Notes under the pieces: model-generated
Told to the model about the DNA's origin: nothing
The model's input: only the letters and a program-made list of their open reading frames with translations
The model's database searches: none
Shown here: positions 6,501 through 39,695 of the stretch, piece after piece
Numbering within the stretch: the first letter of the stretch is position 1
How the letters are laid out: the number at the start of each line of letters is the position of its first letter
Source of the DNA: a virus
DNA: 64,000 bases
Direction: 5' to 3' (one strand)
IMG/VR virus record: IMGVR_UViG_3300045988_146009
Coordinates: 1 to 64,000 of that record
Translations under genes and position numbers: made by a program

Positions 6501-9500
6501 ATGTTCACTTCGGTCATCAAGGCCAACAGGCTGGGATGGTTGAAGAAGGATGCCGATGCTGTGCGTGCCGCCAAGGATATAACCGTAGCCCAGCAAGCCC
6601 GTAGAGAGCGCATAGCCCAAGCCGAAAAGAACTACCAGACGAAGGTAGGACGAGGAGGCATGAAGAATGGGGTATGGACTTCTCCTGGAACGGTATGGCT
6701 TGAGCGTGATGCGGCCATGCGTGCGGAGAAGAACCGGATGGAAACGGTATACGCCATGAAGAGGAATGAAGCCCGTAAGGAACTTCTCAAATATCCTTTT
6801 GGTGCCCGCCTGCTCAATGTGCTGGACGACAACCGAAGAGCTATTGCTACCATGGAAGCTAACCTGATGCAGAGAAGGGGTGCTATCGGACTCGGAACAA
6901 AGGTGAGGGACTTTACCTACCTCTCCCGAACGTTTGCCGCGGTAGGAAAGGAGTCCATCAACTTCCGTAAGGCCATGATGGAACTACTGGACAGCAACGG
7001 CGAAGTGAAGCCGGAGTTTACCCACCTTGTAGGTATCCTAAACAATGCAATCCAAAGCTACATGAGAGAAAACATCTCCCGTTACAACCGGGGTATTTCG
7101 GAAACCCTCGACAACATGCTTGCTATGAGCAAGGTAGCTGATGAACTTGGTCTGGACGGTAGTGAATACCTTGGCTTCAAGGGAAAGGATGTATGGAAGA
7201 ATGTAAGTGAATACCTGACGAAGGACCCGGCCCTGGCTGAGAGTGCTCTAAACACAATCAACAATGGTCACTGGAACGAGATTGCCAAGATGAAGGATGG
7301 CTCGGTTGAACTCCGTCTCATTATCAACAAGGCGAGCCAGCTAGATAACCTGCTCTCCTCTGCTGATGTTGGGGAGAAGAGCCGACTCCGTAGCAAGATG
7401 CGTAAGGCGAAGGCGGACCTGATGAACAAGGCGGCGGAAGACTATGTGCTTTCCAGTATGGGAGTAACCGATACTGACCTCCGCTCCTTCCTCCTCGGTC
7501 TAAATTCTCCGGAACAAATCACGGAAGCATTCAAATCAACTCCCTACCTGGACTCAAGTGTAATCTCCAACCTGATGGGAACGGATGAAAACCTCCGAAC
7601 CCGCATCAGCAACACCATGGATTATGTGAGAAAGTCCACCGCTATTGAAATGCAGAAGCAGGGGGTAAACCTGACCGCTAACCAGCGGGACATGTCCCTT
7701 CTTGCTGATGGTGAAGTAGCGGATGCCCTGATAGCTACCGCTCGGAATGTGTTCAAGGAGACCCTATCCAAGGAGCGTAACGAAGAAAACATCTTCGCCA
7801 ACCGTAAGAACCTGATGGATAGTGAACTTCAAATTCTTGGAGTTCGCGGGTTCAGTAATCTCACGGATGCCTTCGGTGTTATTCAAAACACCTTGTCCTC
7901 CCAGGGCAGAGCCTATGTCAACCAAGTAATTACGCATGACGTAGCAAGAAGCCTTGAAAGGCATGGGGTTGTTACCGGGGAGAGGACGAAGGAGAATACC
8001 CACCTGCTGGAATTCCAGAACAAGGCCAACCCGCTGAACGGAATGTATGCCGAAAGGGACATCGCCCTTGTCCTCTACCAAGCCATGCGACCTGACGAAG
8101 CAATTATGCGGGGTAAGGAATTTGGGAAGAAGTTGCAGAGCCATTGGGGTAACAACTGGGGAATGCTGAGAAGCATCGGTGGGTTTGTCTCCATGTTGAC
8201 CCTGGTCCGTACTCCCTCCGCTACCCTCCGTAACATGGCGGGGACCATGGGGCAAAGCCTGAACGCAGGTGCTCTCCCGTTTGACAAGGGGGTTATCAAG
8301 GGATATGGGGAAGTGTACCAGCTTGCCCAGGACTTCGTTGTTGCAAACATTCTAAGTGCCGCGGGTTCCGTTGGTGTGAGGGGTGCAGTGAACAGTGAGA
8401 TTATGGCGAACGCTGAGAAGCGATTCAACCAGTCCATGCAGAGGTATCGTGACCTTGGTCTGCTCGACGCGGGCGCGGCGAACTTCATGAAGGAACAGTG
8501 GAAGCAGGGGCTTAATGAAATGAGCCAGAAAGAGGGCAGTGAAATCAGCTTGCCCGACGAGGACGCAATGTTCTCTTCGCTCGTATCGGAACTAGGAGAC
8601 CGGAGCACTGCAAAGAAAGCGATGGACCTCGCCAAGCGCATTGCGTATGGTACGTTCGTTTCGCCTATGAGCGTTGCCGCTTCTGCTTACTCCGTCCCTG
8701 ACGTTATCGCCAAGATAATCCTCTTCAATGGGGAGAGCCACAAGGTAAGCAAGGTAGTGAAAGCCGAGCTCGCACAAGCTGAGAAGCTGAGTAGAGCAGG
8801 AAAGGAAGACAAGCTGACAAGCTACATGAAGGACGCTTTGGCCGCTAAGAAGGAAGGGACTCTTACTTCCTACATTGAACGTAGGGCGGCGGACAGGACG
8901 AAGAACCTTCTTCCCACGGGGGCAAGAACCCCTGACTGGGTGAATAAGGTAAGCATCTTTGGGATGCCCTTCTTCTCCTTCATGTACCACACTTGGCAGA
9001 GTGTACCTTACAGCATTGGCTACGGGATGGAAGAACTTCGCGCCGCAAGGTTTGCAACCAATACGGCAGATAAAGTCTCCCTCTACATGGATGCCACCCA
9101 AAAGTTTGGAGGTGCTATCCTGGGCCAGTATGCTATGATGGAACTGATGCGGTTTGCCCTTCCGATTGTTACTCAAGCAATCATGGGTATGGTCACGGGT
9201 GATGACGAAGAAGACAAGATGCAGATGCTCGAAGCAAGTTCGTTTACCCGTTGGCTTGCACGGAATGCTGGACTCTCCGCGGACTACGACCAGAACGGAG
9301 AACTCTTTTTCTGGTTTGACAAGGATAATGAAACCTTCATAGTCCAGGATGGTCAGTACCTTCTGCCATATAAGAGCCTTGGTGAAACCCTGGGTGCTAT
9401 TATCAACCTCGCTGGATTGAATCCTTTCTCTGACAAGAGTGAGGCTAACCAATTCGAGGATGACTACACCGCCCAGCTTCTGGATTATGTTCAGAGCACG

Positions 9501-13038: not shown

Positions 13039-13529
13039 GATACTAAATGGAATAAGGTTTTTGTATGTTTGGCCACGGGGAAAGCATTTGCTTCATCATG
13101 CACGGGTTCGAGTACACCTACTTCATTTACAGTCAGGTCCCTCACTTCCCAAAGGAAGCCATCTCTACCCACGTAAACAAAACGATAACGAATATCCTTA
13201 TAGTCTGGTGGCTTAGGTACAGAGTTGGATGCTGGAGCATAGGTATCGTATGCAAAGATTCCTTTATTGGAATTAATGACATCATTCAAGGTCTTGTTAA
13301 AATCCCAGGAAGGTTTCTGTGTGTAGTATTCAATATTCCCGTGAAGGATAGACCAGTAGATATACCCTGTGGAAGTGTCATGTGGTTTCCCAGCTATGAC
13401 TTTAATTACATTCTTTTCCATATCATACTGATATACTACGCTGGGGTTGCCAGTGATATAGAAGGGGCCCAAACTTGCATACATCAATTGAAGGGCACGA
13501 GCTATTTTCCTAGGGTCTTCTCTAGACAT
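13035..13529 (-). CDS. Hypothetical protein (164 aa)
   Basis: ORF, translationally coupled to its neighbours. Confidence 0.6.
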   Translation of the reverse strand: MSREDPRKIARALQLMYASLGPFYITGNPSVVYQYDMEKNVIKVIAGKPHDTSTGYIYWSILHGNIEYYTQKPSWDFNKTLNDVINSNKGIFAYDTYAPASNSVPKPPDYKDIRYRFVYVGRDGFLWEVRDLTVNEVGVLEPVHDEANAFPVAKHTKTLFHLVS

Positions 13530-14040
13530 TGTGGCTGGAATAAATTTGAGTTGAAGCGGGCGAAGCGTTCGTATCGTCCTCCATCAGTTTGATTTTATTT
13601 ACTAGAGCGGTGAGGTCACGTCGTACATTTCGGAATTCCTGGCTGATATTAATCGTGTCACTCTCCATATCGAGATACATGGCGTGAACCATGCGAATAA
13701 TAATCAGGTCCTCCGCTCGCTTGTCAATAGAAGGGGAAGCCATTGAGCGGAGGAACCGAGCCATGTTCATCATGAACTTTGAATTGCTCTTGATTCCCTG
13801 CCAGTGGTTCATGAAATCGTTCAGGTAGAATAGGGCCTTGCTCACATCTTCCCTACGCTTACGTTGTCCACCCTTGAGTCCACTCCGCCAGAGATACTTG
13901 ATGCAGTTGCCCATATCAAAGGGAAGGTAACGGGTAAGCTCAATACATTCCATGCCCGAGGGGTGGGAAGTGTAGTGGCTGGGATGGTTAACGATAGACT
14001 GGTTGTCAAGGATAGATTCGATTACGTCTTTTTGATTCAT
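13522..14040 (-). CDS. Phage DUF3310-like protein (VNHPSHYT...ECIE...GNCIKYLWR motifs) with a C-terminal extension
   Basis: N-terminal motifs IVNHPSHYTSHPSGMECIELTRYLPFDMGNCIKYLWRSGLKGG match the conserved phage HPSHY family, as recalled from memory. Confidence 0.6.
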   Translation of the reverse strand: MNQKDVIESILDNQSIVNHPSHYTSHPSGMECIELTRYLPFDMGNCIKYLWRSGLKGGQRKRREDVSKALFYLNDFMNHWQGIKSNSKFMMNMARFLRSMASPSIDKRAEDLIIIRMVHAMYLDMESDTINISQEFRNVRRDLTALVNKIKLMEDDTNASPASTQIYSSHNV

Positions 14041-14071
14041 GTATTATTGTTTGGTTGATTAGGGGAAAGTA

Positions 14072-14278
14072 TTAGTCGTGAATTCCGAGGGCTTCTCCGA
14101 TTAGGCAGGAGTAGACCCCCATGAATAAAAGGAGACAGAAGGACATCTGATTATAGGGGAGGTCTCCCGAACAGGCATCCATTAATGTTAGGGATGTGCC
14201 CGTTAAGAGAAGGATATGTAGGGTTTTAGCCATTAACGTAGTTGTCAATATCTTCCTGGATAGCCCAGGCTTCCTCAT
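14072..14278 (-). CDS. Possible small hydrophobic protein (68 aa)
   Basis: ORF with a hydrophobic core. It overlaps the next gene by 53 nt. Confidence 0.25.
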   Translation of the reverse strand: MRKPGLSRKILTTTLMAKTLHILLLTGTSLTLMDACSGDLPYNQMSFCLLLFMGVYSCLIGEALGIHD

Positions 14279-14534
14279 AACAATGGATTTGAATCTTGCA
14301 AAGCTTCTTGAACGCGAAGAACGCTAAGACCAAATAGAGCGCATAGGCCGAGACGAACGTTACGTAAGGGATGAAGTTCTTAGGGGTCATAACGAGTATA
14401 AAAAACGCTACGATGAAGACGGCAACATCCAGGAGAACCAGCATGGACATCCAGTCTCCAATTTTACGTGCTCTCATTTCGTGTTGTTCCTTGAGCTTTA
14501 CTTTGTTGTCAATGATTGATTGGTTGGTTGTCAT
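14226..14534 (-). CDS. Small integral membrane protein (two predicted TM helices)
   Basis: Hydrophobic stretches MSMLVLLDVAVFIVAFFILVM and YVTFVSAYALYLVLAFFAF. Confidence 0.55.
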   Translation of the reverse strand: MTTNQSIIDNKVKLKEQHEMRARKIGDWMSMLVLLDVAVFIVAFFILVMTPKNFIPYVTFVSAYALYLVLAFFAFKKLCKIQIHCYEEAWAIQEDIDNYVNG

Positions 14535-21065: not shown

Positions 21066-21905
21066 CTAATCTTTTTTGTCTTGTGTCATACACCAATTAA
21101 ACGCCGCTTTACCTTGTTCAGAAATGGCCCATGGACTAAAAGAACGGTGGACAATACGGGGGCGGGTAACCACTTCTGCTAGAATACATCCATCTTCTTC
21201 CATGCTTTTATTACAATTGCATGGCATAGGGGTTCCCTTGCATTCTCCTCCCCTGTTTTTACGAATATGGCTCTCATAATCCATTGTTAGTAGCAATTCC
21301 TTTAACTCTTTCATGGCCTTATAATTATGGATAGGGTAAGCCATTCGCAAAGAGGTAGAGCTAAAATTCTCTGACTCTAAATAGATTGTGAGATAAAACT
21401 CCTTATTCTCCGTGTTTTCCGTAACGTGTGCAGTATACACGGCTTCCTCACCCTCCAAAATGTTCACAACGTCAGCCTCATACTCAATATATTGAGTTTC
21501 AGGGAGTTCTTCCGTTTTTGCAGGTTGTTTCGGAGCGTCCTTAATGGGCGTAGCGTACACATCAACCGTTGCACAGGGGAGGCCAAAACAGGGATATTGA
21601 TTAAAAGAATCCTCCGTTCCCTCAATTTCGACAATTACCTTCCATTCAGCGCGGAAATCGTCAAGTTCAGCGCGGTCTTCCTCGCTAAGTTCGCCTTCAT
21701 CATCTCCATACCCCATTAAATAAGGGAATGCCCATTGAGGAACGCCCTCAACCCTTTCGTAACTGTCTGACGTTTCATCCGTTTCAGATAAGATAATGTA
21801 CGTACTTCCGCAATGGGGGCATAGTCCGTTTAGAGGCGTAACGCTTCGGTTATCGCATTCCATGCAGTCATATTTTTCGTTTTCGTCGATAATAACAGTG
21901 CTCAT
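21066..21905 (-). CDS. Hypothetical protein with an N-terminal zinc ribbon (CMEC...CPHC), 279 aa
   Basis: ORF. The conserved 5' leader repeat lies upstream at 21906..21975. Confidence 0.6.
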   Translation of the reverse strand: MSTVIIDENEKYDCMECDNRSVTPLNGLCPHCGSTYIILSETDETSDSYERVEGVPQWAFPYLMGYGDDEGELSEEDRAELDDFRAEWKVIVEIEGTEDSFNQYPCFGLPCATVDVYATPIKDAPKQPAKTEELPETQYIEYEADVVNILEGEEAVYTAHVTENTENKEFYLTIYLESENFSSTSLRMAYPIHNYKAMKELKELLLTMDYESHIRKNRGGECKGTPMPCNCNKSMEEDGCILAEVVTRPRIVHRSFSPWAISEQGKAAFNWCMTQDKKD

Positions 21906-28281: not shown

Positions 28282-31200
28282 ATGAACCCCGTAGAATACG
28301 ATAAGCCCACTTCGGGCGGTACGGACCTGACCATTGTAGCCTTGTCTGCTCAGTCATGGTCCACCTGTTATAGACGGAATACAGCCCGCCGAGCCCATGT
28401 GGGGAGTTGTAAAAACCCCGCACTTCTCCCATTTTCCAAGCTGGCAAGCTTCCTGCAAAGTGGAGATAACCATAATCTTTCCCTGCTCGAAGAAGTAAGC
28501 AATCAAATTTCAGTACACTACTGTATCTCAAATGGTATTAAACCTGACGAAGTTGAGGGCATTTTGCCGGACGGGGTGTACAGTTATGGCTTGAAAAGCT
28601 TGAGCGGGATGGAAAAAGAGGAGGCGGCGAAGATTTCAAAAGCCCACCTCCCGGCTATTGTCCCCTCTGTTATTTTCGACCCTTCCTACAGCTATGCCGA
28701 CATGTCCCCGAAGAAAGCCGTCTCCTACTACGGCGAAAGCTGGAAGCATACCGGAGTCTTCGGATTTGACATTGACCTGGGCAAGGACGGCAACACGGAC
28801 GATGCGGACGAGTTGTACGATATGGGCGTTTCTTTCTTTTCCACCCTGCCGGGCTTCCTGCTCCTGTTCCGCAGTCCCAGCGGTGGATTGAAGGTGCTCA
28901 TACAGGTAGACGGAGCTACGCGGGTTCGGTTGAACGAAGGAAGTAACGAAGGAAGAATTGCGTTGCACAAGGCCATCTACAAGCGGATTAGCGAGGGGAT
29001 TAACGAGAGTGCCCCGTTTATTCTTGATTCCCGCACCAACGATGTAGCCCGGATTCAGTACCTTTACCGGGAACCGGGCTACGTATATGTACCATCCGAA
29101 TTAGATTCGAATGGTACATACTCGGGGTTGGGCCATTGGGATGCACGGGATATTTATGCGGAGAAGGATGCGGATTCCCTCCATTTGCTGGACGAAGAAA
29201 ACCGAAAGGCTTTGCCTTCCAGCTTGTTGGGCTTTATATCCTACCTGCACGATACGGGCTACACGAACTACGCGGAGCACCTGGAAGGTAATCTCGTAGG
29301 GTATGCGGACGGGTTCAAGTGTTCCTGCCCCTGCTGTGTTGAAGAAGCGGGAGGGCAGGTAGGCAATATGGACTTGTGGTTCATACCGGGCGACGGGGAC
29401 ATGAATACGTGGAGAGTGACCTGCTTCCATGAGAGCTGTAAGACCGGGAAGGGCACTAAGACCGGGAAGGACATTACCAGCATGGCCGAGCTATACCGCG
29501 GGTATGAGAGCTATTTAAGCGAGAAGGTAAGCAACCTAACTAGCGAAGCGGTAGCCTCGGCGAAGGAAAAAGAAAAGGAGCCGGAAGAAGGGGAAGAAAA
29601 TATAGCGTTCGATTACATGCGGGACTACATTACCTCCCTGCTCCAATCCAACAGCAAGACCCGTTACCGGGTGAACCCTCCTTACAGCACTGAGCAGATA
29701 CTTGAGGGCGCGAAGCCCTGGGCTGGCAAGCTTATCATGGAAGAATATACCGTGAAGAGCAAGGGCCGCCCGAAGAAGGGAGAAGAAGGAGAAGAGGGCG
29801 GCGAGAAGAAGGAAAGGCCCGCGATTTGCCGGGAGAACCTTGAAATCATCCTTGCTGAATGCTTTGACATCTTCGTTACCTACAATACTGTTTCCCAGGA
29901 ATACTGGGCGATTGATACCAAGAACAGGTACGTATCCAACTGCTATAGTATCGACCAGTTCCGGAAACCGCTGGCCTATGCTGTTCATGAGTTCGTGTAC
30001 AAGCCGTTCGGGGTAGCCTACGGGATGGTGGATGTTGAGCTTGAACGCGCCCTTCCAGTCATCGGCAATAGCCATTACTTCAATCCATTCCTGAAAATGA
30101 TTGAGTATGATGATTGGGATGGGAAGGAGGACCGGGTGGGGAGGTTTATTGACATCCTCATTTCGGCGGTTGACCCGGCGTGGAGCCTTGATGGTGGAAG
30201 CGGAGAACTTCTGAACAAGATAAAGGCAGACATCGAACGGGACCCGAAGGGGGCTGAGAAGATTGGTTTGACCGAAGCCCTGGTGGACCCGAAGGAATAC
30301 ACGAGGGAGGTGATGAAGACATTCCTCGTTTGTGCCTACCGGAAATACATACATGGTTGCGAACCCCACATGTACACCAAGGCCGAGGAGCACGACAACA
30401 TGTGCCCTGTAATTTATGGTGAGCAGGGGGTGGGGAAGAACACGCTGATTGAAAGTCTTGTTACCGTGCTTGGTGAAGGCTATCTGTGGAACCCTTCCGG
30501 CCTCCGTGACATCAGTGGGGATAACAAGGACAACAACATGAAGGCTTCCTCCTGCCTTATTGCCCACCTGGACGAAGTGGACAAGTATACTGAGGGGGAA
30601 GAAGCGATTAGCACGTTGAAGCAGGTCATCACGAGCAAGACCAACAAGATTCGTCTTCCTTTTGCCCGGCACTTGCAGGACCTCCCTGTAAAAGTCAGCT
30701 ATATCGGAAGTACGAACAAGAGTGCTTTCCTGCTTGATGCCAGCGGAAACCGACGCTTCGCTACCATCATCACCAAGGGGGGCTACAACATGAATGAAAT
30801 CCAGTGGCTACGTGCTACCAACATCTGGCCCCAGGTAAAACGGATGGCGGAAGAAGACGAGAACGTAGGCCGCTACGGGTGGTACAAGCTACAGAAGATA
30901 ACCGAGCATAACAACTCAACGAACGTAATGAGCGAAGGGACCGATGTGGCCTTACTGGAACTTCTGGTTGATGCCAGCGACATCATGGATACCAAGGGCC
31001 ACATTCTTCTTCGTCACGTTAGTCAGGAGTTCTCCAACTACACGACAATCCTGGAGACCCTACGCTCTATGCAAGGGTCTACCAAGCGTGTTACCCGGAA
31101 CGATGTAATGAGATTTACGAACGACATCATCAAAAAGTACGAGTTGAGCGATAGGTCCGATTTGTACAAGAGGGTCCGAAAGACTCTTTCCGGCAAACGC

Positions 31201-31302
31201 CCAGGTTCCACTATCAGCAAGGTTGTCAACCAACCCTCCTTCATCCCTGCTTTCCTGTATGAAGAGATGGTCGCCGAAGGCTTGGCACCGAGAATACGCT
31301 AA
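28282..31302 (+). CDS. Primase-polymerase (AEP-like) fused to an SF3/D5-like helicase (1006 aa)
   Basis: The N-terminal region has a DxD motif (GFDIDLGKDG) and SPSGGLKV, which is AEP-like. A Cys cluster CSCPCC...CFHESC follows. The C-terminal region has Walker A GEQGVGKNT and Walker B LIAHLDEVD, typical of D5-type primase-helicases. Confidence 0.8.
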   Translation: MNPVEYDKPTSGGTDLTIVALSAQSWSTCYRRNTARRAHVGSCKNPALLPFSKLASFLQSGDNHNLSLLEEVSNQISVHYCISNGIKPDEVEGILPDGVYSYGLKSLSGMEKEEAAKISKAHLPAIVPSVIFDPSYSYADMSPKKAVSYYGESWKHTGVFGFDIDLGKDGNTDDADELYDMGVSFFSTLPGFLLLFRSPSGGLKVLIQVDGATRVRLNEGSNEGRIALHKAIYKRISEGINESAPFILDSRTNDVARIQYLYREPGYVYVPSELDSNGTYSGLGHWDARDIYAEKDADSLHLLDEENRKALPSSLLGFISYLHDTGYTNYAEHLEGNLVGYADGFKCSCPCCVEEAGGQVGNMDLWFIPGDGDMNTWRVTCFHESCKTGKGTKTGKDITSMAELYRGYESYLSEKVSNLTSEAVASAKEKEKEPEEGEENIAFDYMRDYITSLLQSNSKTRYRVNPPYSTEQILEGAKPWAGKLIMEEYTVKSKGRPKKGEEGEEGGEKKERPAICRENLEIILAECFDIFVTYNTVSQEYWAIDTKNRYVSNCYSIDQFRKPLAYAVHEFVYKPFGVAYGMVDVELERALPVIGNSHYFNPFLKMIEYDDWDGKEDRVGRFIDILISAVDPAWSLDGGSGELLNKIKADIERDPKGAEKIGLTEALVDPKEYTREVMKTFLVCAYRKYIHGCEPHMYTKAEEHDNMCPVIYGEQGVGKNTLIESLVTVLGEGYLWNPSGLRDISGDNKDNNMKASSCLIAHLDEVDKYTEGEEAISTLKQVITSKTNKIRLPFARHLQDLPVKVSYIGSTNKSAFLLDASGNRRFATIITKGGYNMNEIQWLRATNIWPQVKRMAEEDENVGRYGWYKLQKITEHNNSTNVMSEGTDVALLELLVDASDIMDTKGHILLRHVSQEFSNYTTILETLRSMQGSTKRVTRNDVMRFTNDIIKKYELSDRSDLYKRVRKTLSGKRPGSTISKVVNQPSFIPAFLYEEMVAEGLAPRIR

Positions 31303-31337
31303 AAGCTACCTAACCCACCATAAACGATACTTAACAA

Positions 31338-31645
31338 TGAACACGAACACAAAACGAACAATTCCAGAACAATTCATTCGGGACGGCTACGTATCCACCC
31401 TGCTCAAGAGGGACGGGAATGTGGCCATGTACGAATGCCGCGGCCAGGAAACCGACGTAAAATTCTTCGAGGTTGTGAAAGTCCGCCGTCACACCAGGGA
31501 CAAACTGGACTTCAACATCCACGAGGGGGACGAATATCTTCCCTCCGCCCGTGAGTGGGGAACCTACGGTTGGACCTTTACGGACAAACCGAGAGCGAAA
31601 AACAAGTACAAAAAGGAGGTGAAGAAAGAACAGGAACAAGCCTAA
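31338..31645 (+). CDS. Hypothetical small protein (ORF track 31223..31645; the start at 31338 avoids overlap with the primase gene)
   Basis: ORF. MNTNTKRTIPEQF is a plausible start. Confidence 0.45.
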
Positions 31646-31667: not shown

Positions 31668-31699
31668 GCCCCAGGTAGCCCATGTTGGTTGCCTGGGGC
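31668..31699 (+). promoter_or_regulatory. Hairpin with an 8-bp stem GCCCCAGG/CCTGGGGC and a 16-nt loop
   Basis: Read directly, downstream of the 31338..31645 gene. Confidence 0.35.
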
Positions 31700-31706
31700 C
31701 CCTTTG

Positions 31707-31730
31707 TATACGCATAGGTTTATGCGTATA
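31707..31730. promoter_or_regulatory. Perfect 24-bp palindrome TATACGCATA-GGTT-TATGCGTATA. No T-run on either side, so a candidate operator (dimeric DNA-binding site).
   Basis: 10-bp arms read directly. The partial motif GTATGACAAAAAG follows immediately. Confidence 0.5.
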
Positions 31731-32007
31731 TAGTATGACAAAAAGGATGGAGATTGTTCTTGAAATAATGACTACGCGGTGGTAGGGTCTGTTCATGGAC
31801 ACAGAACAAGATGAATGGAAATCCTGCACGACTTGCGCTTATGCCATCTGGCCAGGAGCTTCCTACCCCTGCTCGGTTTGCAACTATAAGGACATGTGGG
31901 TTCCACAGGAAGGGGACGGGGACGAAGAAGATTCCAAACATGGGGGTGAAGCCGAGTACGAATAAAAGCTAAATATTATACAGTAAAAACTTACACCTGT
32001 CAAGCCA

Positions 32008-32241
32008 ATGGGTATGAATAATAAAATCTTCGCATGCTTCAAATGTCATCTCTATTTTACGCACGACGACTATGCTGTTGTTAACCACGAAAAGTGCCCA
32101 GTATGCTCTGCCAAATTGGTAGCTTTAAACCCGGTTCAAATCAGTTGTGATACTTGCTTGCATATAGCTAGAAGAATAACGGAATCTCCGTGCAATAGAT
32201 GCTTCGCAAAAGAAGACTATGAATTTTGGGTCCCGAATTAA
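32008..32241 (+). CDS. Zinc-ribbon mini-protein (two CxxC...CxxC units), first member of a tandem zinc-ribbon array
   Basis: CFKCHLYF...CPVC and CDTC...CNRCF. Confidence 0.5.
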   Translation: MGMNNKIFACFKCHLYFTHDDYAVVNHEKCPVCSAKLVALNPVQISCDTCLHIARRITESPCNRCFAKEDYEFWVPN

Positions 32242-32242
32242 A

Positions 32243-32470
32243 ATGAAGAAGATATGCGAGACCTGCCATTACTTTGGCCAGGACCCCATAGATACTCCGT
32301 GCCATATATGTGAAGAGTCTTTCTTTTGGGAACCCAGGGACCCCAACGACCCTCTTCCCAAACAACCAATGGAACGAGATTGCAGAAACTGTGGTTTTAG
32401 TACTCAACCCGCACACACCTATCCCTGTAGCATGTGCTATACCTTTTCCCAATGGAAATCCAAGTCATGA
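32243..32470 (+). CDS. Zinc-ribbon mini-protein (two CxxC...CxxC units). The ORF track starts at 32219; MKKICETC at 32243 is preferred.
   Basis: CETCHYF...CHIC and CRNCGF...CSMC. Confidence 0.5.
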   Translation: MKKICETCHYFGQDPIDTPCHICEESFFWEPRDPNDPLPKQPMERDCRNCGFSTQPAHTYPCSMCYTFSQWKSKS

Positions 32471-32646
32471 AGAAGACCTGCATTAACTGTTGGAGAACCT
32501 TCTACCCTAATCCTGACAATGAAGATGAAATGAGAGGGTATTGCCCCTCATGCAATCTTTCGTTTGACAAGATGCTAGAACATCTAGAAAAGCTAGAAGC
32601 TCTTATCATTAAAAACATTTCTAAGAAATACACACCATCAACATGA
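32467..32646 (+). CDS. Zinc-ribbon mini-protein. The ORF track starts at 32434; MKKTCINCW at 32467 is preferred, giving an ATGA overlap with the upstream stop.
   Basis: CINCWRTF...CPSC. Confidence 0.5.
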   Translation: MKKTCINCWRTFYPNPDNEDEMRGYCPSCNLSFDKMLEHLEKLEALIIKNISKKYTPST

Positions 32647-33161
32647 ATAAAAAAGTCGATAAACTTCTCAATACCCTCCTTACCGCGGATGACCTCCGTG
32701 AAATCCTTTACTTGTGCAAAGCTAAAAAGACTCCCAGCTTGGCCAGGGCCATGTCCTACCTGCTCCCCTACATTGAGCACAACACCCTGGAATGGGACGA
32801 AGCCATGGACTACTTGTTTAAAGAGCAGACTTGCGCCCACGTTTTCACCTGTCCTAAGTTCAAAGCGGAACCCCTTATCTTCATTAACCCCTACATGCTC
32901 TTTCCGAACGATATGGCCGAAGTGCTCGTTGCTCGTTTTGGATGGACTACTGAGGTTTTTTGTTTGTCCGGACTCTATAACTTCAAGGACTTCTGCAAGG
33001 CCCTGGGTGGACTTCACCCGGAACTTCCCTTTGAAAGTGAGGCTAGTTTCGTGAACGCTTGGGAAGACTATCAGGAGGTAAGGTCTACTGGTGAGATGAA
33101 GACCTTCTATTTCAAACGGGATAGCACAAACTCGTTCTTTAAAATTATCTTTCAACCCTAA
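32643..33161 (+). CDS. Hypothetical protein (172 aa)
   Basis: ORF with 4-nt coupling to the upstream zinc-ribbon gene. Confidence 0.6.
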   Translation: MNKKVDKLLNTLLTADDLREILYLCKAKKTPSLARAMSYLLPYIEHNTLEWDEAMDYLFKEQTCAHVFTCPKFKAEPLIFINPYMLFPNDMAEVLVARFGWTTEVFCLSGLYNFKDFCKALGGLHPELPFESEASFVNAWEDYQEVRSTGEMKTFYFKRDSTNSFFKIIFQP

Positions 33162-33170
33162 ACAAGAATA

Positions 33171-33210
33171 GCCGCGCAAGACTTCTAACATCTTGCGCGG
33201 CTACCCTTTT
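33171..33210 (+). terminator. Intrinsic terminator (11-bp perfect stem GCCGCGCAAGA/TCTTGCGCGGC) with a weak T-run
   Basis: Read directly after the stop of the 32643..33161 gene. Confidence 0.55.
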
Positions 33211-33289
33211 CACCAATCAAACATACATGAAACACATGGACTTCGATAGGGGTAAAGTATCATATATCTGTCATAATGTCAAGATGTGA

Positions 33290-33317
33290 TTGACTTACGA
33301 GACAGCTAATGTAGAAT
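33290..33317 (+). promoter_or_regulatory. Sigma70-like promoter TTGACT-N16-TAGAAT upstream of the 33376 gene
   Basis: Read directly. Confidence 0.45.
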
Positions 33318-33375
33318 AGACCCATGAACAAAATCAAGTTTCAATGCTCTACTTGTTCTAACACTTTCAACTTGA

Positions 33376-33630
33376 ATGAAACCGTTTGACACCCATTTCC
33401 TTTTTGCGTGCTTCTCCTGCTATACTCCCTTCAATCTTTCCGAAATCGACCAGACGAAACTGTGTTGTCCAATATGCGGAGACGAAGTAGACTACAAGCA
33501 AGACCCTGGGGATGTCGTAGAATATAAAACCCCGCTCACATGCTTCGAGCAGGACCCTCCCATATCCACTAGGGTAACTTACCAGTGCCCCCATTGCCAA
33601 GCTCCTTTATCTGAACTACCCAAACTCTAA
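33376..33630 (+). CDS. Zinc-ribbon mini-protein (84 aa)
   Basis: CFSCYTPF...CCPICGDE...CPHC. Confidence 0.5.
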   Translation: MKPFDTHFLFACFSCYTPFNLSEIDQTKLCCPICGDEVDYKQDPGDVVEYKTPLTCFEQDPPISTRVTYQCPHCQAPLSELPKL

Positions 33631-34037: not shown

Positions 34038-35927
34038 ATGACGACCCCTACGCCTAACACTACACCTAAGCCAACCAGGAATAGCCTGACTCCACGCAAG
34101 GTAGCCGATTGCCATGAACTTAACGGCGATACTATCGCTATTGACTTTGAAACGTATTACGACAAAGACTATAGCTTGAAGAAGACCTGCTACCATCATT
34201 ACTGCAATGACCCCCGGTTTGATGCGTACATTATGTCCGCGGCGACCGACGAGGAAGTTTGGGTGGGACACCCGAGGGATTTCGACTGGGAAGTAACGAG
34301 GGATAAGACCGTCATCTCCCATAACGCCGCATTTGACCGGACGGTATACGAGATTGGTTTGAAAGCCCCCGGAGACTGGCCTATGCGTAGCTGGATGTGT
34401 TCGATGGCCGCGTGCAACTACTTGAACATCCGTGGCAACCTTGCACAGATTTCTTGGAAGCTCCTGAATATCTCCATGAGTAAAGAAGTTCGTGAAGCCG
34501 CTCAGGGCGTAGACTTTAGCAAGATGGAAGAAATCCCGGAGGACATGATAAACTACGTGGCCTTCGATAGTATTTCCTGTCTTGCCGTCTGGTATGCCAT
34601 TGAAAAGTATTGGCCCTCTGATGAAAGATACCTGTGGAGTCAGACGGTGGACATGGGCGTAAGGGGCATTCCCACCAACAAGAAATGGCTCCAGGCCGCA
34701 TTGAAGCGTTTAGAGGAGAGGGTGGCCTATCACGAAAGCCAGATTCCATTACAGAAAACACAATCCAGAAACGAGCTCATTGCCTATTGCAAAGCCAACG
34801 GAATCGAACCCCCCACCACTACCGCAAAGACCAATCCCCTGTGGGAGAAGTGGCTGGACGAATGGGGCCAGAGTGTCCCATGGATTCGGCATCTGGCTTT
34901 ACAGCGGTCAGCCAATCGCGTCCGCTCTATTTTCACCACTGCTCTGGAACGACTCTATACCGACGAGAATGGCGTAGACCGGGTTCCCTTCACCCTTCGT
35001 TATATGGGGGCTGGAACAGGAAGGTGGTGTGCGGGTTCTGATGGGTTTAACGCCCAACAGTTTAACAGAGAACGAGTTGAGGGAATTAACACCCGTCACA
35101 TGATTCAAGCAGGTAAAGGATTCCGTCTTGTCGTAGCCGACTTCGCCGCCGTTGAGGTACGAGTAGTTATGTGGCTATCAGGTCAGACGGAGATTTTCGA
35201 TTACCTAAAGCAAACCCCTGACCTCTATGAAGCTTTTGCACGATTCCTTGGGCAGATGCCCGCAGGTGCCAAGACGCTAAAAGGGTGGTGTGAAGAAAAT
35301 CACAGTCCCCTTCGCCATCAGATTAAATCTCAGGTTTTGGGGGCTGGCTTCTGTTTGGGTTACAAGGGACTTCACAAGAACAACCCCAACATCCCTCTTG
35401 AACGGTGCAAGGAGCTGATTGATGGTTTCCGTGCGAAGTGTCCCAAAGTGGTAGCTATGTGGCATAATCTAGAACGAATCATGAAGCGAGGTATTGCGTC
35501 CCCCAACCGTTGCTTTGCTTTGACTCTCCCCTCCGGGCGAAAGGTTTGGTATCGAGACATCCACCGTGAACTAATTACACCGAAGGACAAAGATAAAAAA
35601 CCTTTCACTGCATGGGTTGCAAGCACCCCTGATGATAACGGAAAACCAGGGAACGTAATCCTTTCGGTCGCCCTACTCACCAATAACATTGTTCAGGCCA
35701 CCGCCCGTGACCTCATGAAGAACGCTATTGTGAAGGCTGGGATTCAGGGGAAGAACTTCGAACTCGTTCTTCCGGTGCATGACGAACTGGTTGTACGATG
35801 CCGGAAGGAGGATGCCCCCGCTGTAGAGAAAGCCCTGTCCAAATTCATGACGGAACAACCTTCCTGGGCTTCAACCCTGGAGCTTTCTGCACCCCCTTCT
35901 ACCTTCTATAACTACACAAAGGATTAA
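34038..35927 (+). CDS. Compact family-A DNA polymerase with an N-terminal 3'-5' exonuclease domain (629 aa)
   Basis: Exonuclease motifs: Exo I IAIDFETYY, Exo II ISHNAAFDRTV, Exo III YVAFDSIS. Polymerase motifs: motif A VVADFAAVEVRV, motif B KSQVLGAGFCLGYKG, motif C PVHDELVV. Confidence 0.85.
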   Translation: MTTPTPNTTPKPTRNSLTPRKVADCHELNGDTIAIDFETYYDKDYSLKKTCYHHYCNDPRFDAYIMSAATDEEVWVGHPRDFDWEVTRDKTVISHNAAFDRTVYEIGLKAPGDWPMRSWMCSMAACNYLNIRGNLAQISWKLLNISMSKEVREAAQGVDFSKMEEIPEDMINYVAFDSISCLAVWYAIEKYWPSDERYLWSQTVDMGVRGIPTNKKWLQAALKRLEERVAYHESQIPLQKTQSRNELIAYCKANGIEPPTTTAKTNPLWEKWLDEWGQSVPWIRHLALQRSANRVRSIFTTALERLYTDENGVDRVPFTLRYMGAGTGRWCAGSDGFNAQQFNRERVEGINTRHMIQAGKGFRLVVADFAAVEVRVVMWLSGQTEIFDYLKQTPDLYEAFARFLGQMPAGAKTLKGWCEENHSPLRHQIKSQVLGAGFCLGYKGLHKNNPNIPLERCKELIDGFRAKCPKVVAMWHNLERIMKRGIASPNRCFALTLPSGRKVWYRDIHRELITPKDKDKKPFTAWVASTPDDNGKPGNVILSVALLTNNIVQATARDLMKNAIVKAGIQGKNFELVLPVHDELVVRCRKEDAPAVEKALSKFMTEQPSWASTLELSAPPSTFYNYTKD

Positions 35928-36105: not shown

Positions 36106-36390
36106 ATGAACCAACGAAAGAAACTTCAAAAAGAACTTACCGCCAATCGGATTTCAATGCGCCACCTGAGACGGTTGGCGTATAGTCTTGAATCCAAGGG
36201 AGATTTAACCGCTACGCAGTGCATCATTGTAAACAACAAGATTCCCCTTTTCTTCAATTTCTCTCCTTCCATTCCCGTCAACTTCAAACCCATCTACCCC
36301 TTCATTTACAATCACGCTTATTGGATGAAGGACAAAAAGGACTGGGCTTTGACCTGCTACGAAGACGACAGTTATGCTTACAATAAATAG
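36106..36390 (+). CDS. Hypothetical protein (94 aa)
   Basis: ORF. It overlaps the HNH gene start by 17 nt. Confidence 0.4.
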   Translation: MNQRKKLQKELTANRISMRHLRRLAYSLESKGDLTATQCIIVNNKIPLFFNFSPSIPVNFKPIYPFIYNHAYWMKDKKDWALTCYEDDSYAYNK

Positions 36391-37114
36391 TATGGATACT
36401 TCTAGTGAAATATGGGGGATTATTAAGGATTTCCCGAATTACAGTGTAAGCACTTTAGGAAGAGTAAAAAATAACCTTAGTGGGAAATTGTTGTCACTTT
36501 CAACTTCTCAAGGAGGATATTATTTTGTAGCTCTATATCGAAATAATGGTGGAGATAAAAAATATCTTCGGGTAAATCGTCTGGTGGCGATGACGTTTAT
36601 TCCGAATCCTCATAATAAATCTCAAGTAAATCATATAGATGAAAATAAAAAGAATAATAGATGGGATAATTTAGAATGGACTACACCTACGGAAAATAGA
36701 AATCATGGGACAAGTATTATTCGTTCAGCAAAAAGTCTCAGTCCCGCGGTTGTCCAATATTCTTCAACAGGTTATTTTATTGCAGAATACCCAAGTGCTG
36801 TGGAAGCAAGAATAGTTACAGGAGTATCTAATTTAGCCATTGCTAAATCATGTAGAAAAGAAAGGGCGATGGGGGGAGGCTATCAATGGAGAAAAAGGGA
36901 GGATGATTACCCTCTTCAAATTGAATCCGCAGTTGGACCTATTAAAGCGATACTTAAATATAGCCCTACAGGGGAACTTCTTTGGATATATTCAAGTATA
37001 AAAGAAGCGAGCGAAGATACCACGGCTACTCTTTCAAATATTGTAAGTAATATAAAAGGAAGGAAGAGTGTAAAAACAGTAGGGGGCCACATTTATAGAG
37101 AGGAAATAGTATAA
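36374..37114 (+). CDS. HNH homing endonuclease with an N-terminal NUMOD4-like motif
   Basis: N-terminal WGIIKDFPNYSVSTLGRVKN, then HNH_3 core NHIDENKKNNRWDNLEWTTPTENRNHG. The codon usage is AT-rich and unlike its flanking genes. Confidence 0.7.
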   Translation: MLTINSMDTSSEIWGIIKDFPNYSVSTLGRVKNNLSGKLLSLSTSQGGYYFVALYRNNGGDKKYLRVNRLVAMTFIPNPHNKSQVNHIDENKKNNRWDNLEWTTPTENRNHGTSIIRSAKSLSPAVVQYSSTGYFIAEYPSAVEARIVTGVSNLAIAKSCRKERAMGGGYQWRKREDDYPLQIESAVGPIKAILKYSPTGELLWIYSSIKEASEDTTATLSNIVSNIKGRKSVKTVGGHIYREEIV

Positions 37115-38466
37115 TGTTAACACCCTATCCTCTTCAACAGCGGGCAATAGAAAAGCAAGCAAAAATAATTAGGGACAGGAATTTTGCCCTTTGTACATCT
37201 TCCCTCGGTTCAGGAAAGACCCTAATGGCTATTGAGACCGCAAGGTCTCTTGGCCTCACCCCTTTGGTGGTAGCACCCAAGTCCACTCTTACTTCATGGG
37301 AACGAACCCTCGACGAGCAAGGGGTGGACTACTACGACATTCTGTCGTGGGAGAAAATGAGACGCGGTGATACGAAGTGGTATAAGAAAGTCAATCAGAA
37401 GAGCAGGAATGGGAAGTGGAACCTTCCTAAGAATACCCTGCTGATACTTGATGAAGTGCACAAAGCAAAAGCTGGTTCCCTCTCCCAGCAAGGGAGGATG
37501 GTGATTCATGCGGCTATGCAGAACATCCCCATCTTAGCCATGTCCGGAACCCCCTTCGTCAACCCCCTGGATATGGAATTCATCGCTATCGCCACCAAGC
37601 AGATACGGGATTCCTTTTCTTTCCGCCGCTGGTGCAAGCAACATGGATGCACTCAGAACTGGTTCAATGCCTGGGAGTTCAACCCCAGGACCCCCGGAGG
37701 GGAGAAAGGATTGAAAGACATCCGGGAACTTCTCTACGGGAAGAGCCCCACGGCGGTTCAGATTACACGGCAGGACTTGAAGGAGTTCTTCACGGACTCA
37801 ACGCTCTCAGAGGTCTTAGTGGACTTTGATGCCAAGGTGCTCAAGAAAATGAAGGAGCTTGAGAAGTTCGTTCTGAAACAGGACCAGCAACGGAAGGAAG
37901 ACTTGGAAAGGGACGAAGCCAAAGTTCTGGAAGCTCTCGCCAAGGGTAAGGAAGCGAACGTTTCTTCCACCCTGCGGGAAATCCTCCGTGTTCGGCAGGA
38001 GATTGAACTCCTTAAAACCCCCGTCATGTCAGAGTATATCCAGAATCTTCTTGACGAAAACAAGAGTGTCGTGGTATTCGTTTCATTCAAGGAAACAATC
38101 AATGCCCTGCTCGAAGCATTCAAGGAAGTTCCGAGCGTAGTAATCGACGGTTCTGTAACCGGGAAAGACAGGCAAAGGGCTATTGACCAGTTTCAGGCTG
38201 ATGAAGCTCACCTTGCCTTCGTTAACTTCCAGGCGGGAGGTGCAGGTATTTCCCTGCATGACACCCGTGGAGAAAGGCCCCGTGCTTCCGTCCTGAATAC
38301 CACGTTCAGCATTACAGATACGCTCCAAGCTCTCGGACGAATTGACAGAGCCGGAGCTAAGAGCAATACCGAACAGTATGTTCTAGTTGCCGCAGGCACC
38401 TACGAAGAAGAGGTATTCAAATCAGTGAAGGATAAACATTACTCTATGACTCAAGCAGTTTTATGA
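37114..38466 (+). CDS. SF2 DNA/RNA helicase (DEXH box)
   Basis: Motif I CTSSLGSGKTLMAIE, motif II LILDEVHKA, motif VI QALGRIDRAG. A coiled-coil insertion lies between the two RecA-like lobes. Confidence 0.8.
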   Translation: MLTPYPLQQRAIEKQAKIIRDRNFALCTSSLGSGKTLMAIETARSLGLTPLVVAPKSTLTSWERTLDEQGVDYYDILSWEKMRRGDTKWYKKVNQKSRNGKWNLPKNTLLILDEVHKAKAGSLSQQGRMVIHAAMQNIPILAMSGTPFVNPLDMEFIAIATKQIRDSFSFRRWCKQHGCTQNWFNAWEFNPRTPGGEKGLKDIRELLYGKSPTAVQITRQDLKEFFTDSTLSEVLVDFDAKVLKKMKELEKFVLKQDQQRKEDLERDEAKVLEALAKGKEANVSSTLREILRVRQEIELLKTPVMSEYIQNLLDENKSVVVFVSFKETINALLEAFKEVPSVVIDGSVTGKDRQRAIDQFQADEAHLAFVNFQAGGAGISLHDTRGERPRASVLNTTFSITDTLQALGRIDRAGAKSNTEQYVLVAAGTYEEEVFKSVKDKHYSMTQAVL

Positions 38467-39695
38467 AAGAACCAATCGAAACAGAAGTTGACGGACACAG
38501 TAAGTACAGTCCCTCTTCCATAGCCAGTTATGCAACATGTCCAGGCTATTCCCCAAAAGAGAAGGAAGAAGTTAATGACGAAGAACTAACTGAGATGGAC
38601 CCCGCGAGCGTAGGCTCTCGAATCCACGAAGCCCTGGAAAAAGATGACCCTTCAATTCTTCTTTCCAGTCAGGAACACTGGATGTACAACAAGTGCAAAT
38701 CTGAAATGGAAGAGCTCATTATCTTGTTCTCCAAGGTGTGTGACGTTAAACCAGAAGAGATTGAGGTAATACCTGAACACAAGTTCCCCGGAGTATCTAT
38801 GCCACTTGTGGGTATCCAGACCGGAACCACGGACGTTCTTCTCAGGTGTGGGGAAGCCAGCCTCATTGCTGACTATAAGACAGGTATGATTGAAGTGGGG
38901 CATCCCAAGACTAACAGTCAGACCGCGGTCTATTCCCTGTATGAATTCAGTGAGCGTCCGGAATGTAACATGATTATCGTCGCCACTATTCAACCCCAAT
39001 CGGAGCAGTGTACGAAGGTAGCCATGATTCTCCGGAACAAGGAAGATAAAGACATCTACACTGTACCGGACATCCCGATGTATGAGAACGGAGATATGAG
39101 TGATATATCCCTGCTCTATGCTTCCACCATAGAAAGGGCTGAAAAACTAATAGCCCACACTTCTGAATACCGTGTAAGTCCTGATGTTTGCATTCATTGC
39201 AGACGACTTCCCGTTTGTCCGAATATTGCCAAGTTGACTTCTCGATTCGGAAAAGAAATTCTCCATCTTGAAGAAGACGACAAGCTTATTGTAGATATGA
39301 ATGAAGCTATTGACTCTCCTGAAAACATTGGAAGGTTAATGAGCTTCTATAAAATTGCCCTTGAAAGCGAGAAAGAGATTAAGAAAATTGCACGAGGGCT
39401 CTTCAACATGAATGTGGAAATCCCCGGATGGAAAGCATCCAAGGGAGCTAGGACCATAAGTGTTGACAAGGAGAGGTTTAAAGAGTACGCCCGAAACCGA
39501 TTAGAGGATTCTGAGATTGTTGAAATCCTGGGTTCCCTTCCTGTAGGAAAGATTCTCAATGCTATTATTGATAAGTTTGACTCGGACATGGAGAAGGACG
39601 AACGGAATGAAATTAAGGACACTATGATTTCCGACCTCGAAGATTCCGGAGTAGTGAGAGGAGTAAATACTGGAGTTCGAATTATTCGTTCTTGA
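38463..39695 (+). CDS. PD-(D/E)xK nuclease of the Cas4/RecB type, with a 4-Cys (Fe-S) pattern
   Basis: N-terminal Cys (YATCPGY). Nuclease motifs are present, ending IADYKTG. C-terminal CIHCRRLPVC gives the Cx(n)CxxCx5C layout. An 803-nt antisense ORF is rejected. Confidence 0.7.
   Translation: MKEPIETEVDGHSKYSPSSIASYATCPGYSPKEKEEVNDEELTEMDPASVGSRIHEALEKDDPSILLSSQEHWMYNKCKSEMEELIILFSKVCDVKPEEIEVIPEHKFPGVSMPLVGIQTGTTDVLLRCGEASLIADYKTGMIEVGHPKTNSQTAVYSLYEFSERPECNMIIVATIQPQSEQCTKVAMILRNKEDKDIYTVPDIPMYENGDMSDISLLYASTIERAEKLIAHTSEYRVSPDVCIHCRRLPVCPNIAKLTSRFGKEILHLEEDDKLIVDMNEAIDSPENIGRLMSFYKIALESEKEIKKIARGLFNMNVEIPGWKASKGARTISVDKERFKEYARNRLEDSEIVEILGSLPVGKILNAIIDKFDSDMEKDERNEIKDTMISDLEDSGVVRGVNTGVRIIRS

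Follow-up and report, generated by a model that had tools for sequence, protein, structure and literature searches.

A mini-gene array between the primase-helicase and DNA polymerase genes of an uncultured phage carries a previously undescribed Cys4 module that appears essentially confined to viruses

Few kinds of phage 'dark matter' are as common as small cysteine-rich open reading frames (ORFs), which are usually written off as generic zinc ribbons. We analysed such ORFs, here called genes A to E, that lie between the primase-helicase and family A DNA polymerase (PolA) genes of an uncultured phage (IMG/VR record IMGVR_UViG_3300045988_146009). The window, i.e. the whole stretch of DNA that was analysed, comprises 64,000 nt with 46.8% GC, and all coordinates refer to it. 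Several described groups of proteins come close to those of the array. Generic zinc ribbons and rubredoxin-like knuckles (DZR PF12773, Zn_ribbon_8, RpoP, TFIIE/TFE and rubredoxin) are small and have two CxxC knuckles, as here, and one chelated metal ion is presumed for them as well as for the units of the window. Lar-like restriction-alleviation ribbons (PF14354; phrog_5558, phrog_6422) are small phage Cys4 proteins like D and E. T7 gp1.7, for which a kinase function is described (PMC11897194, PMC10700055), has a Cys-rich N-terminal half of its own. Genes of its family DUF3310 (PF11753) were cytotoxic in mycobacteriophage screens (PMC10700055); DUF3310 is encoded by the phage studied here and is fused elsewhere to the module described below. 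Bacillus phage G has an expansion of zinc ribbons to about 35 copies, which were speculated to be transcription factors or DNA-binding proteins, and jumbo phages possess stand-alone primase-type zinc ribbons (Iyer et al. 2021, PMC7824862). Like the window, phage G has several paralogous tiny zinc-ribbon genes with an unassigned role, some of them primase-associated, but the expansion in the window involves five genes and two types of unit, and the first of these types had no match in phage G in tblastn.

Cys4 units were counted in all six frames with the patterns C-x2-C-x(10-12)-C-x2-C and C-x2-C-x(9-22)-CPxC. The window contains 10 such patterns, 7 of them within 31.8-33.5 kb, compared with 0.24 ± 0.57 expected from 100 shuffles of the window. 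The Cys4 array is real, and its clustering is far beyond chance. A preliminary description of this DNA had placed it correctly between the primase and polymerase genes; the ORFs that it reported at 32008, 32243, 32467 and 33376 exist, and all peptides that it quoted are present. Its count of seven to nine units in these four ORFs becomes six complete Cys4 units plus a degenerate one with three Cys in gene E, or seven complete units if gene A is included. The shared start that it had proposed, C-x-x-C-[HWY]-x-x-F/W, lumps together two unrelated types of unit. Type I has the form C-x2-C-x11-P-C-x2-C...W and is present in four copies, of which A and the C-terminal half of B have one each and C has two. 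Type II has the form C-x2-C-x11-19-CPxC and is by its sequence a generic rubredoxin-like ribbon; D has one, and B and E each have one in their N-terminal half.

The type I units resemble one another beyond their cysteines. With the Cys columns removed, their similarity corresponded to z = 6.0 among the window units, 8.5 when window units were paired with those of relatives and 14.7 for all pairs, and was reached by none of 2000 permutations. Pro directly precedes Cys3 in 12/12 type I units of the window and its relatives, an aromatic residue or His stands two residues after Cys2 (Y, H, Y and F in the four window units), and Trp follows 5-10 residues past Cys4 in all four. The question of whether the units align beyond the Cys positions, on which the preliminary description had made its family depend, is thus answered in the affirmative for type I. 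The likeness among type II units is mostly generic, consisting of the aromatic residue after knuckle 1 and the Pro of CPxC; without these columns, z was 1.9 within the window. Type I as a diverged type II ribbon was rejected, as profile-profile comparison in hhalign gave a probability of 1%, and the idea of a single family falls with it. The notion of an expanding family of tiny zinc ribbons inside a replication module proved to be right, copy number and architecture varying among relatives (see below).

A profile of B, C and their homologs was used for an exhaustive HMMER scan of 1.84 billion representative proteins, which returned 108 representative proteins at E ≤ 1e-3, the top match having 10-11 units. 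Strict type I units are present in about 60 of these 108 proteins: 140 units, 1-11 per protein, with acidic linkers and the logo [E]-K-x-C-x-[NT]-C-[KR]-[YHF]-x8-[E]-P-C-x2-C-x5-10-W. The mean charge of a unit is -1.5 and the median isoelectric point (pI) of the carriers 5.2. A hidden Markov model (HMM) was built from 140 units of unrelated carriers only and searched in a six-frame database of the window (8,786 fragments). It matched exactly four places in the 64 kb, in A (independent E value, i-E, 3.9e-6), B (3.5e-9) and C (1.9e-5 and 3.4e-6), and rejected D, E and the N-terminal ribbon of B; as its units had been recruited by a profile containing B and C, this external HMM is independent in its training sequences, not in the discovery of the family. 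T7 gp1.7, considered as a further type I carrier, was likewise rejected, since its Cys motifs scored E 140.

The distribution of type I was also followed with a degenerate DNA pattern for the unit, which was scanned over cellular genomes and IMG/VR. In 596 Gb of cellular genomes it hit 10 stretches, with 0 convincing in-frame units and about 4 hits estimated by chance; in IMG/VR it hit 15 stretches, about 10 of them genuine. In tblastn with type I queries, only the Clostridium phages vB_CtyS-FA67 and vB_CtyS-FA70 were found among 50,697 cultured phage records. The homolog search suggested earlier has thus yielded about 60 carriers by profile and these two cultured phages, and type I appears to be essentially confined to viral sequence. 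No description of the repeat was found in the literature searched. We conclude that type I is a previously undescribed, essentially phage-only module of about 30 residues, a new family within the known small Cys4 metal knuckles. An AlphaFold2 (AF2) model of the unit had a moderate confidence (predicted local distance difference test, pLDDT, 77.7), contained no metal and had no fold neighbour; for full-length B, the pLDDT of 54 was too low for use.

Like generic ribbons, type II has an aromatic residue following its first knuckle and CPxC as its second, whereas type I differs from them in its fixed 11-residue spacer, the Pro before Cys3 rather than after it, the conserved K, aromatic, E-E and W residues and the tandem arrays. 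The type I profile matched no PDB sequence, rubredoxins included, and the type II profile gave marginal, scattered matches there (rubredoxins, RpoP, TFIIE, S27ae, LysW, McsA). Searches of A-E and their neighbours against Pfam, PHROGs, NCBIfam and PADLOC returned nothing at curated thresholds. For DZR and DZR_2 (PF12773 and PF18912, cutoffs 27.3 and 27 bits), gene E reached 14.4 and gene B 10.9 bits (DZR_2); the best DZR score among relatives was 24.8 bits, for the third paralog of locus L003, versus the cutoff of 27.3. Against the NCBIfam equivalog models of RpoP and TFE/TFIIE (cutoffs 72-180 bits), B and E reached 13-15 bits (E values 0.011-0.04). Primase zinc-finger profiles (DnaG zf-CHC2, T7 gp4 zinc-binding domain) in Pfam, NCBIfam and PHROGs had no match in A-E at E ≤ 1, and no DUF3310 domain was detected by Pfam in A-E or in the 172-aa orphan protein encoded after D. 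Sub-significant matches to Lar-like PHROGs, covering the ribbon knuckles only, were obtained for D (E value 1.3e-3, phrog_5558) and E (0.016); Lar PF14354 had no match in A-E at E ≤ 1, and the type I proteins had no Lar-like PHROG match. In PADLOC-DB, nothing was found for A-D or for the 172-aa, 102-aa and 99-aa proteins of the interval, and gene E matched only at E values of 0.094 and 0.23. The sole library family that apparently models the type I unit is phrog_19852 (PHROGs v4, function unknown, 53 positions), which matched 8 of 58 type I carriers over one unit each (best E 1.1e-11). The window proteins did not reach significance with it, gene B scoring E 0.43 at residues 47-67, within its type I unit.

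Gene A contains the unit that the preliminary description had assigned to a start-less frame open from 31771 to 31965, a possible pseudogene or a product of frameshifting. This frame is not open from 31771, since the TAG at 31783-31785 closes it, and an ordinary in-frame ATG, which had been overlooked, follows at 31795, 12 nt after that TAG. The nearest ATG, reported at 31767 and in another frame, is really at 31768 and in the same frame, where it reads MTTRW* and is stopped by the same TAG. The frame is conserved as well: in strain L017, which is about 97% identical, the ATG at 31768 is lost while the ATG at 31795 and the complete 56-aa ORF are intact, with 4 synonymous and 2 non-synonymous changes (ratio of non-synonymous to synonymous changes, pN/pS, 0.11), and both are also intact in strains L001 and L002. 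The match of the gene A unit to the external HMM speaks against a pseudogene, too. A Shine-Dalgarno (SD) sequence is missing, which is normal for this genome: the SD core is found in only 4 of 47 window genes, below the 13% background, the leaders are rich in A and poor in G, and all 47 genes start with ATG, so that ATG starts without SD are the rule. Such an SD-poor, ATG-only pattern is typical for phages of SD-independent hosts, e.g. Bacteroidota. Nothing was found in favour of decay or frameshifting, and we give this reading practically no chance; the headline oddity of the original finding, its start-less frame, is not real.

Upstream of gene A, the hexamers TTGAAA and TAGGGT are kept in L017, the spacer between them having diverged; the TAG of the second hexamer is the stop codon that closes the upstream frame. 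This block is a possible promoter of a leaderless gene A mRNA, and it was missed by a sigma-70 scan because its -10 hexamer matches the consensus at 3/6 positions. The geometry at 31783-31797 (TAGGGT, 6 nt, ATG) is like that at 33312-33326 (TAGAAT, 6 nt, ATG), at the start of a 21-codon ORF ahead of gene E, which suggests leaderless transcripts at both places.

The interval between primase and polymerase was shown to consist of five ordinary protein-coding mini-genes, the 172-aa orphan gene and the 21-codon ORF (Table 1). A-E are intact genes under purifying selection, with a pooled pN/pS of 0.23 for A-D versus L017. For single genes, pN/pS was 0.23 for B and 0.59 for C, and D showed no amino-acid change. 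Gene C has an alternative ATG upstream, at 32219, which would make it overlap gene B; its start sequence ATGAAGAAGA recurs at gene D, which would encode 64 aa if it started at 32452. Gene E is identical in L002, and its degenerate second ribbon retains three Cys only (C56...C71-P-H-C74). The 172-aa gene had a pN/pS of 0.12 in its own frame, and a 229-aa ORF antisense to it (32502-33191) was rejected as spurious (pN/pS 3.4). The 172-aa protein had no match in Pfam, PHROGs, NCBIfam or PADLOC and no relative in cultured phages; among the latter, no relatives of E were found either, and D, E and the 172-aa protein had none outside this phage species. The 21-codon ORF resembles residues 9-22 of gene E, whose first 14 nt it covers in the +1 frame, and the -10-like TAGAAT ends 6 nt ahead of the ATG of this small ORF. 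Three readings of it are conceivable: what is left of a duplicated ribbon, a leader peptide or a genuine micro-protein.

Table 1 Features of the primase-polymerase interval and related genes of the window (positions in the 64,000-nt stretch)
Feature	Position	Strand	Size	Description
DUF3310 / T7 gp1.7-type 'nucleotide kinase' protein, stand-alone	13522-14040	-	172 aa	Pfam DUF3310 E 1.1e-9; phrog_11324 E 6.8e-27
VapE-like/D5-type primase-helicase	28282-31302		1,006 aa	PF05272 E 1e-22; primase and helicase PHROGs
102-aa gene	31337-31645	+	102 aa	Between primase-helicase and first hairpin
Terminator-like hairpin	31668-31699	+	13 pairs, 9 G-C	After primase and 102-aa genes; upstream boundary of apparent unit 1
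Perfect palindrome TATACGCATA-GGTT-TATGCGTATA	31707-31730		10+10	Between terminator-like hairpin and gene A; identical in L017
TTGAAA-17 nt-(TGG)TAGGGT block (possible promoter)	31760-31788	+		Ends 6 nt before gene A ATG
Gene A	31795-31965	+	56 aa	ATG start; one type I unit (31819-31908), then acidic tail; pI 4.05
Gene B	32008-32241	+	77 aa	4 CxxC; N-terminal type II ribbon (32035-32106), C-terminal type I unit (32143-32229)
Gene C	32243-32470	+	75 aa	4 CxxC; two type I units (32246-32338, 32372-32464)
Gene D	32467-32646	+	59 aa	2 CxxC; one type II ribbon (32479-32553), C-terminal amphipathic helix
Orphan gene	32643-33161	+	172 aa	Coupled to D via ATGA overlap; last gene of apparent unit 1
Hairpin	33164-33208	+	18-nt arms, 89% complementary	Directly after 172-aa gene; downstream boundary of apparent unit 1; identical in L017
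Sigma-70-like promoter (candidate) TTGACT-16-TAGAAT	33290-33317	+		10/12 consensus positions; identical in L017
21-codon ORF MNKIKFQCSTCSNTFNLNETV*	33324-33389	+	21 codons	Half type II ribbon; conserved in L017 with one synonymous change
Gene E	33376-33630	+	84 aa	3 CxxC and 2 further Cys; intact type II ribbon (33409-33477), degenerate second ribbon
99-aa gene		+	99 aa	After gene E, before PolA
Family A DNA polymerase (PolA)	34038-35927	+		PF00476; phrog_17 E 5e-71

On the plus strand, the order is 102-aa gene, hairpin, palindrome, A, B, C, D, 172-aa gene, hairpin, sigma-70-like promoter, 21-codon ORF, E, 99-aa gene and PolA. These genes apparently form two transcription units, one comprising A, B, C, D and the 172-aa gene between the two hairpins, with ATGA overlaps at both the C/D and the D/172-aa junctions, and a second one beginning with gene E. 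The first hairpin is kept in L017 save one loop base. The palindrome, the only one of its kind in the window against a chance expectation of 0.01, may be an operator or a DNA/RNA hairpin, and the promoter upstream of the 21-codon ORF and gene E is a candidate identified by its match to the consensus. An Rfam scan of the array region detected no RNA family. Between A and B, the minus strand has a sigma-70 sequence, TTGACA-17-TATAAT (31975-32003), that fits the consensus at 12/12 positions and points antisense into A; the whole 42-nt A-B spacer is identical in L017.

The array was compared among related loci. A near-identity DNA search with 28-38 kb of the window against the 50,697 cultured phage records gave no match, the polymerase is less than 25% identical to any cultured-phage polymerase, and a PolA-based scan of IMG/VR returned no match. 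By PolA, L001, L002 and L017-L019 belong to the same species as the window, and they have the same array. Genes C and E had seemed to be absent from L002; this was rejected, as an interval of equal length encodes the same ORFs there and the gene caller had skipped them. In L003-L008 (PolA 64% identical to that of the window), the array consists of three tandem paralogs of 75-78 aa, each with a type II ribbon followed by a type I unit like B. Word-indexed homolog searches with B and with the two-domain alignment recovered the clades of the window and of L003 only. L010-L012 (PolA 41%) encode a 270-aa protein with five fused type I units, for which Pfam had no match, and a 122-aa protein with one unit. 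Type I units are missing from the slot in L013 (PolA 45%), which holds ThyX and membrane proteins, and in L014 (PolA 43%), which holds other genes; in L050 and L051 (PolA about 28-30%) the gene order differs and there is no type I unit near PolA. An IS605 OrfB/TnpB (Cas12f-like) gene is inserted in L013 at 13043-14281.

Two pairs of close relatives show how the cassette changes. L009 (PolA 41%) is a sister strain of L010-L012, near-identical to L010, in which an 812-bp deletion at a shared 'AVD' (9287-9634 in L009 versus 8476-9634 in L010) leaves a 115-aa chimera with one unit, made of the first 58 aa of a 132-aa protein and the last type I unit of the 270-aa protein. Loss of units and fusion of domains are here seen directly while under way. 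L003 and L004 have identical PolA, HNH, helicase and nuclease proteins, whereas their three mini-genes share 96%, 75% and 94% amino-acid identity with dN/dS values of 0.10, 0.39 and 0.23. The cassette is therefore coding and constrained, yet accessory and part of a recombination mosaic. In the third paralog of L004 (4629-4862), CPAC is changed to SPAC, so that a predicted metal ligand is gone, which could be decay of this paralog or an assembly error. Taken together, the relatives show that the cassette is accessory and changes via duplication, fusion and deletion of units.

Beyond these relatives, type I units are linked by fusion and by neighbourhood to genes of nucleotide metabolism and replication. 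The most frequent fusion partner is DUF3310, present in 7 of the 58 carriers; PHROGs labels the families of these carriers 'nucleotide kinase', after T7 gp1.7. It precedes the units in P0088 and L038 and follows them in P0072, P0074 and P0101, which points to independent fusions. dGTP_diPhyd_N (dATP/dGTP diphosphohydrolase), DUF4406, DUF6378, DUF551 and DUF2188 were found in one carrier each. In Clostridium phage vB_CtyS-FA70 (L016, 5541-6453), ORF44 and ORF45, annotated as hypothetical, have two type I units each and are flanked by NrdD, NrdG and a C5-methylase on one side and by a dUTPase on the other; the C-terminal domain of ORF45 is common to a metagenomic protein with seven units (P0068). 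In L022, the 10-unit protein P0067 is encoded between dUTPase and ThyX plus a deoxynucleoside monophosphate (dNMP) kinase on a contig with PolA and ribonucleotide reductase (RNR). In a raw census, 40 neighbours in independent viral loci include ThyX, dCMP deaminase, DUF4406, DUF3310, AAA_33 kinase and radical S-adenosylmethionine (radical-SAM)/Fer4_12 proteins, and also TAGT, DNA methylase, PolB and ERF. The stand-alone DUF3310 protein of the window, which has no Cys units and is encoded in a leftward gene block, may work together with the type I proteins, a suggestion that comes from Rosetta-stone reasoning only.

Some other features of the window and its relatives concern the surroundings of the array. 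The primase-helicase contains a KCSCPCC...TCFHESC cluster (29300-29420) and may thus have its own putative zinc site. A DUF6926 protein (21066-21905, minus strand) bears an N-terminal CMEC...CPHC ribbon outside the array. Directly downstream of PolA lies an HNH/NUMOD4 homing-endonuclease-like gene (36374-37114), which is also present in the L003 clade and is not at that position in the L009 and L014 clades; helicase (37114-38466) and nuclease (38463-39695) genes follow in the window. A giant ORF of 3,284 aa (507-10361), which had no Pfam or PHROG match, takes up roughly one seventh of the genome (relatives are about 66-72 kb long).

Regarding function, we tentatively propose that type I is a metal-stabilised protein-docking module for phage nucleotide supply and replication, with A-C as free adaptors, and give this proposal somewhat less than an even chance. 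Each unit would chelate one metal ion, most likely Zn, via its four Cys and would expose a surface on which K, aromatic, E-E-P and W residues are conserved, thus serving as a docking or tethering element between proteins. Docking would bring enzymes of nucleotide-precursor synthesis and replication proteins to a common partner, which may be the replisome, a complex synthesising deoxynucleoside triphosphates (dNTPs) or a host hub. In this phage, A and B with one unit each and C with two would act as free-standing adaptors co-expressed in the replication module, the DUF3310 enzyme being encoded apart from the docking units. A more far-reaching form of the proposal, in which type I would be the physical 'Velcro' of a nucleotide-supply and replication complex, seems rather unlikely to us: here the unit would be a tag on DUF3310 kinases, dNTP pyrophosphohydrolases and deoxyribosyltransferase-like proteins, the length of an array would adjust its avidity, and A, B and C would dock untagged enzymes, such as the separate DUF3310 protein, or regulators to the replisome. 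Several points weigh against protein docking in nucleotide supply. Metal binding, the identity of the metal and the partner are all deduced from the four invariant Cys and from context. Fusions to nucleotide enzymes occur in only about 10 of the 58 carriers, most of the others consisting of units alone or of units with unknown domains. In small phage genomes, replication genes often lie within ±5 kb by chance, and the neighbour counts come without a background rate. Finally, docking leaves D, E and the 172-aa protein unexplained.

Some carriers are surrounded by small early-type genes, which fits host takeover as well: P0075 has small genes and ArdA close by, and P0089 is two genes away from a weak Lar_restr_allev ribbon. 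According to this explanation, which is unlikely but the most credible of the alternatives and includes the inhibition of host machinery suggested in the preliminary description, the mini-proteins would inhibit restriction enzymes, defence sensors or host replication and transcription factors, and the tandem paralogs and changes in unit number would reflect an arms race. The patchy occurrence among close relatives, the fast turnover of architecture, the mosaic position of the mini-genes (75% amino-acid identity of the second one between L003 and L004 at 100% for PolA), the weak Lar-like matches of D and E, an acidity compatible with DNA mimicry and the cytotoxicity of DUF3310 genes (PMC10700055) agree with it. 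Selection on the array is purifying (pN/pS 0.1-0.6) rather than diversifying, however, there was no PADLOC match and none to Pfam Lar_restr_allev even at E ≤ 1, and recurrent fusions to nucleotide enzymes in a nucleotide and replication setting would not be expected of stand-alone inhibitors. A role as nucleic-acid-binding regulators or structural DNA-binding proteins, acting in transcription or replication of phage or host, had been suggested in the preliminary description and appears improbable. Zinc ribbons are common binders of nucleic acids or polymerases, the type II ribbons had marginal matches to RpoP, TFE/TFIIE, S27ae and YacG, and gene A is closely preceded by the perfect palindrome, which is unique and conserved; DNA binding was also speculated for the ribbons of phage G, and stand-alone primase-type ribbons are known (PMC7824862). 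Against this stand the acidic or neutral pI values (A 4.05, E 4.54, C 5.82, B 6.86), the negative mean charge of the type I units, their Asp/Glu-rich linkers, the lack of any match at threshold to primase zinc-finger or DNA-binding families, and fusions to enzymes and not to helix-turn-helix or other DNA-binding domains. Given the acidity of units and carriers, the arrays and the attachment to enzymes, protein docking is the most likely mode of action, rather than DNA binding; the most plausible candidate for a nucleic-acid-binding role is gene D (pI 7.64), with its ribbon and helix. Very improbable, in our view, is that the Cys4 modules are rubredoxin-like, bind iron and supply electrons or thiol power to RNR, its activase or ThyX. 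The paired CxxC motifs, the marginal matches of the type II profile to rubredoxins (E 0.002-0.006) and carriers adjoining NrdD/NrdG, class II RNR, ThyX and radical-SAM genes would fit such a redox role. Yet about 48 larger window proteins that were scanned include no RNR, ThyX or radical-SAM protein, type I has P-C-x2-C and not the C-P-x-C-G of rubredoxins, which its profile did not match, and 10 electron carriers in an array joined by acidic linkers would be unusual.

To summarize, one class of the small cysteine-rich phage ORFs resolves into a definable, virus-restricted repeat with a sharp signature, tandem arrays and independent fusions. The type I profile could be used to annotate dozens of blank phage proteins. 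The link of type I to nucleotide supply and replication of phages is testable through metal content, partners and the effect on dNTP supply. Experiments would most naturally start from FA70 and its sister FA67, since no other cultured phage was found to carry type I. The module bears on the question of how phages organise precursor synthesis around the replisome, which has been worked out mainly for T4.

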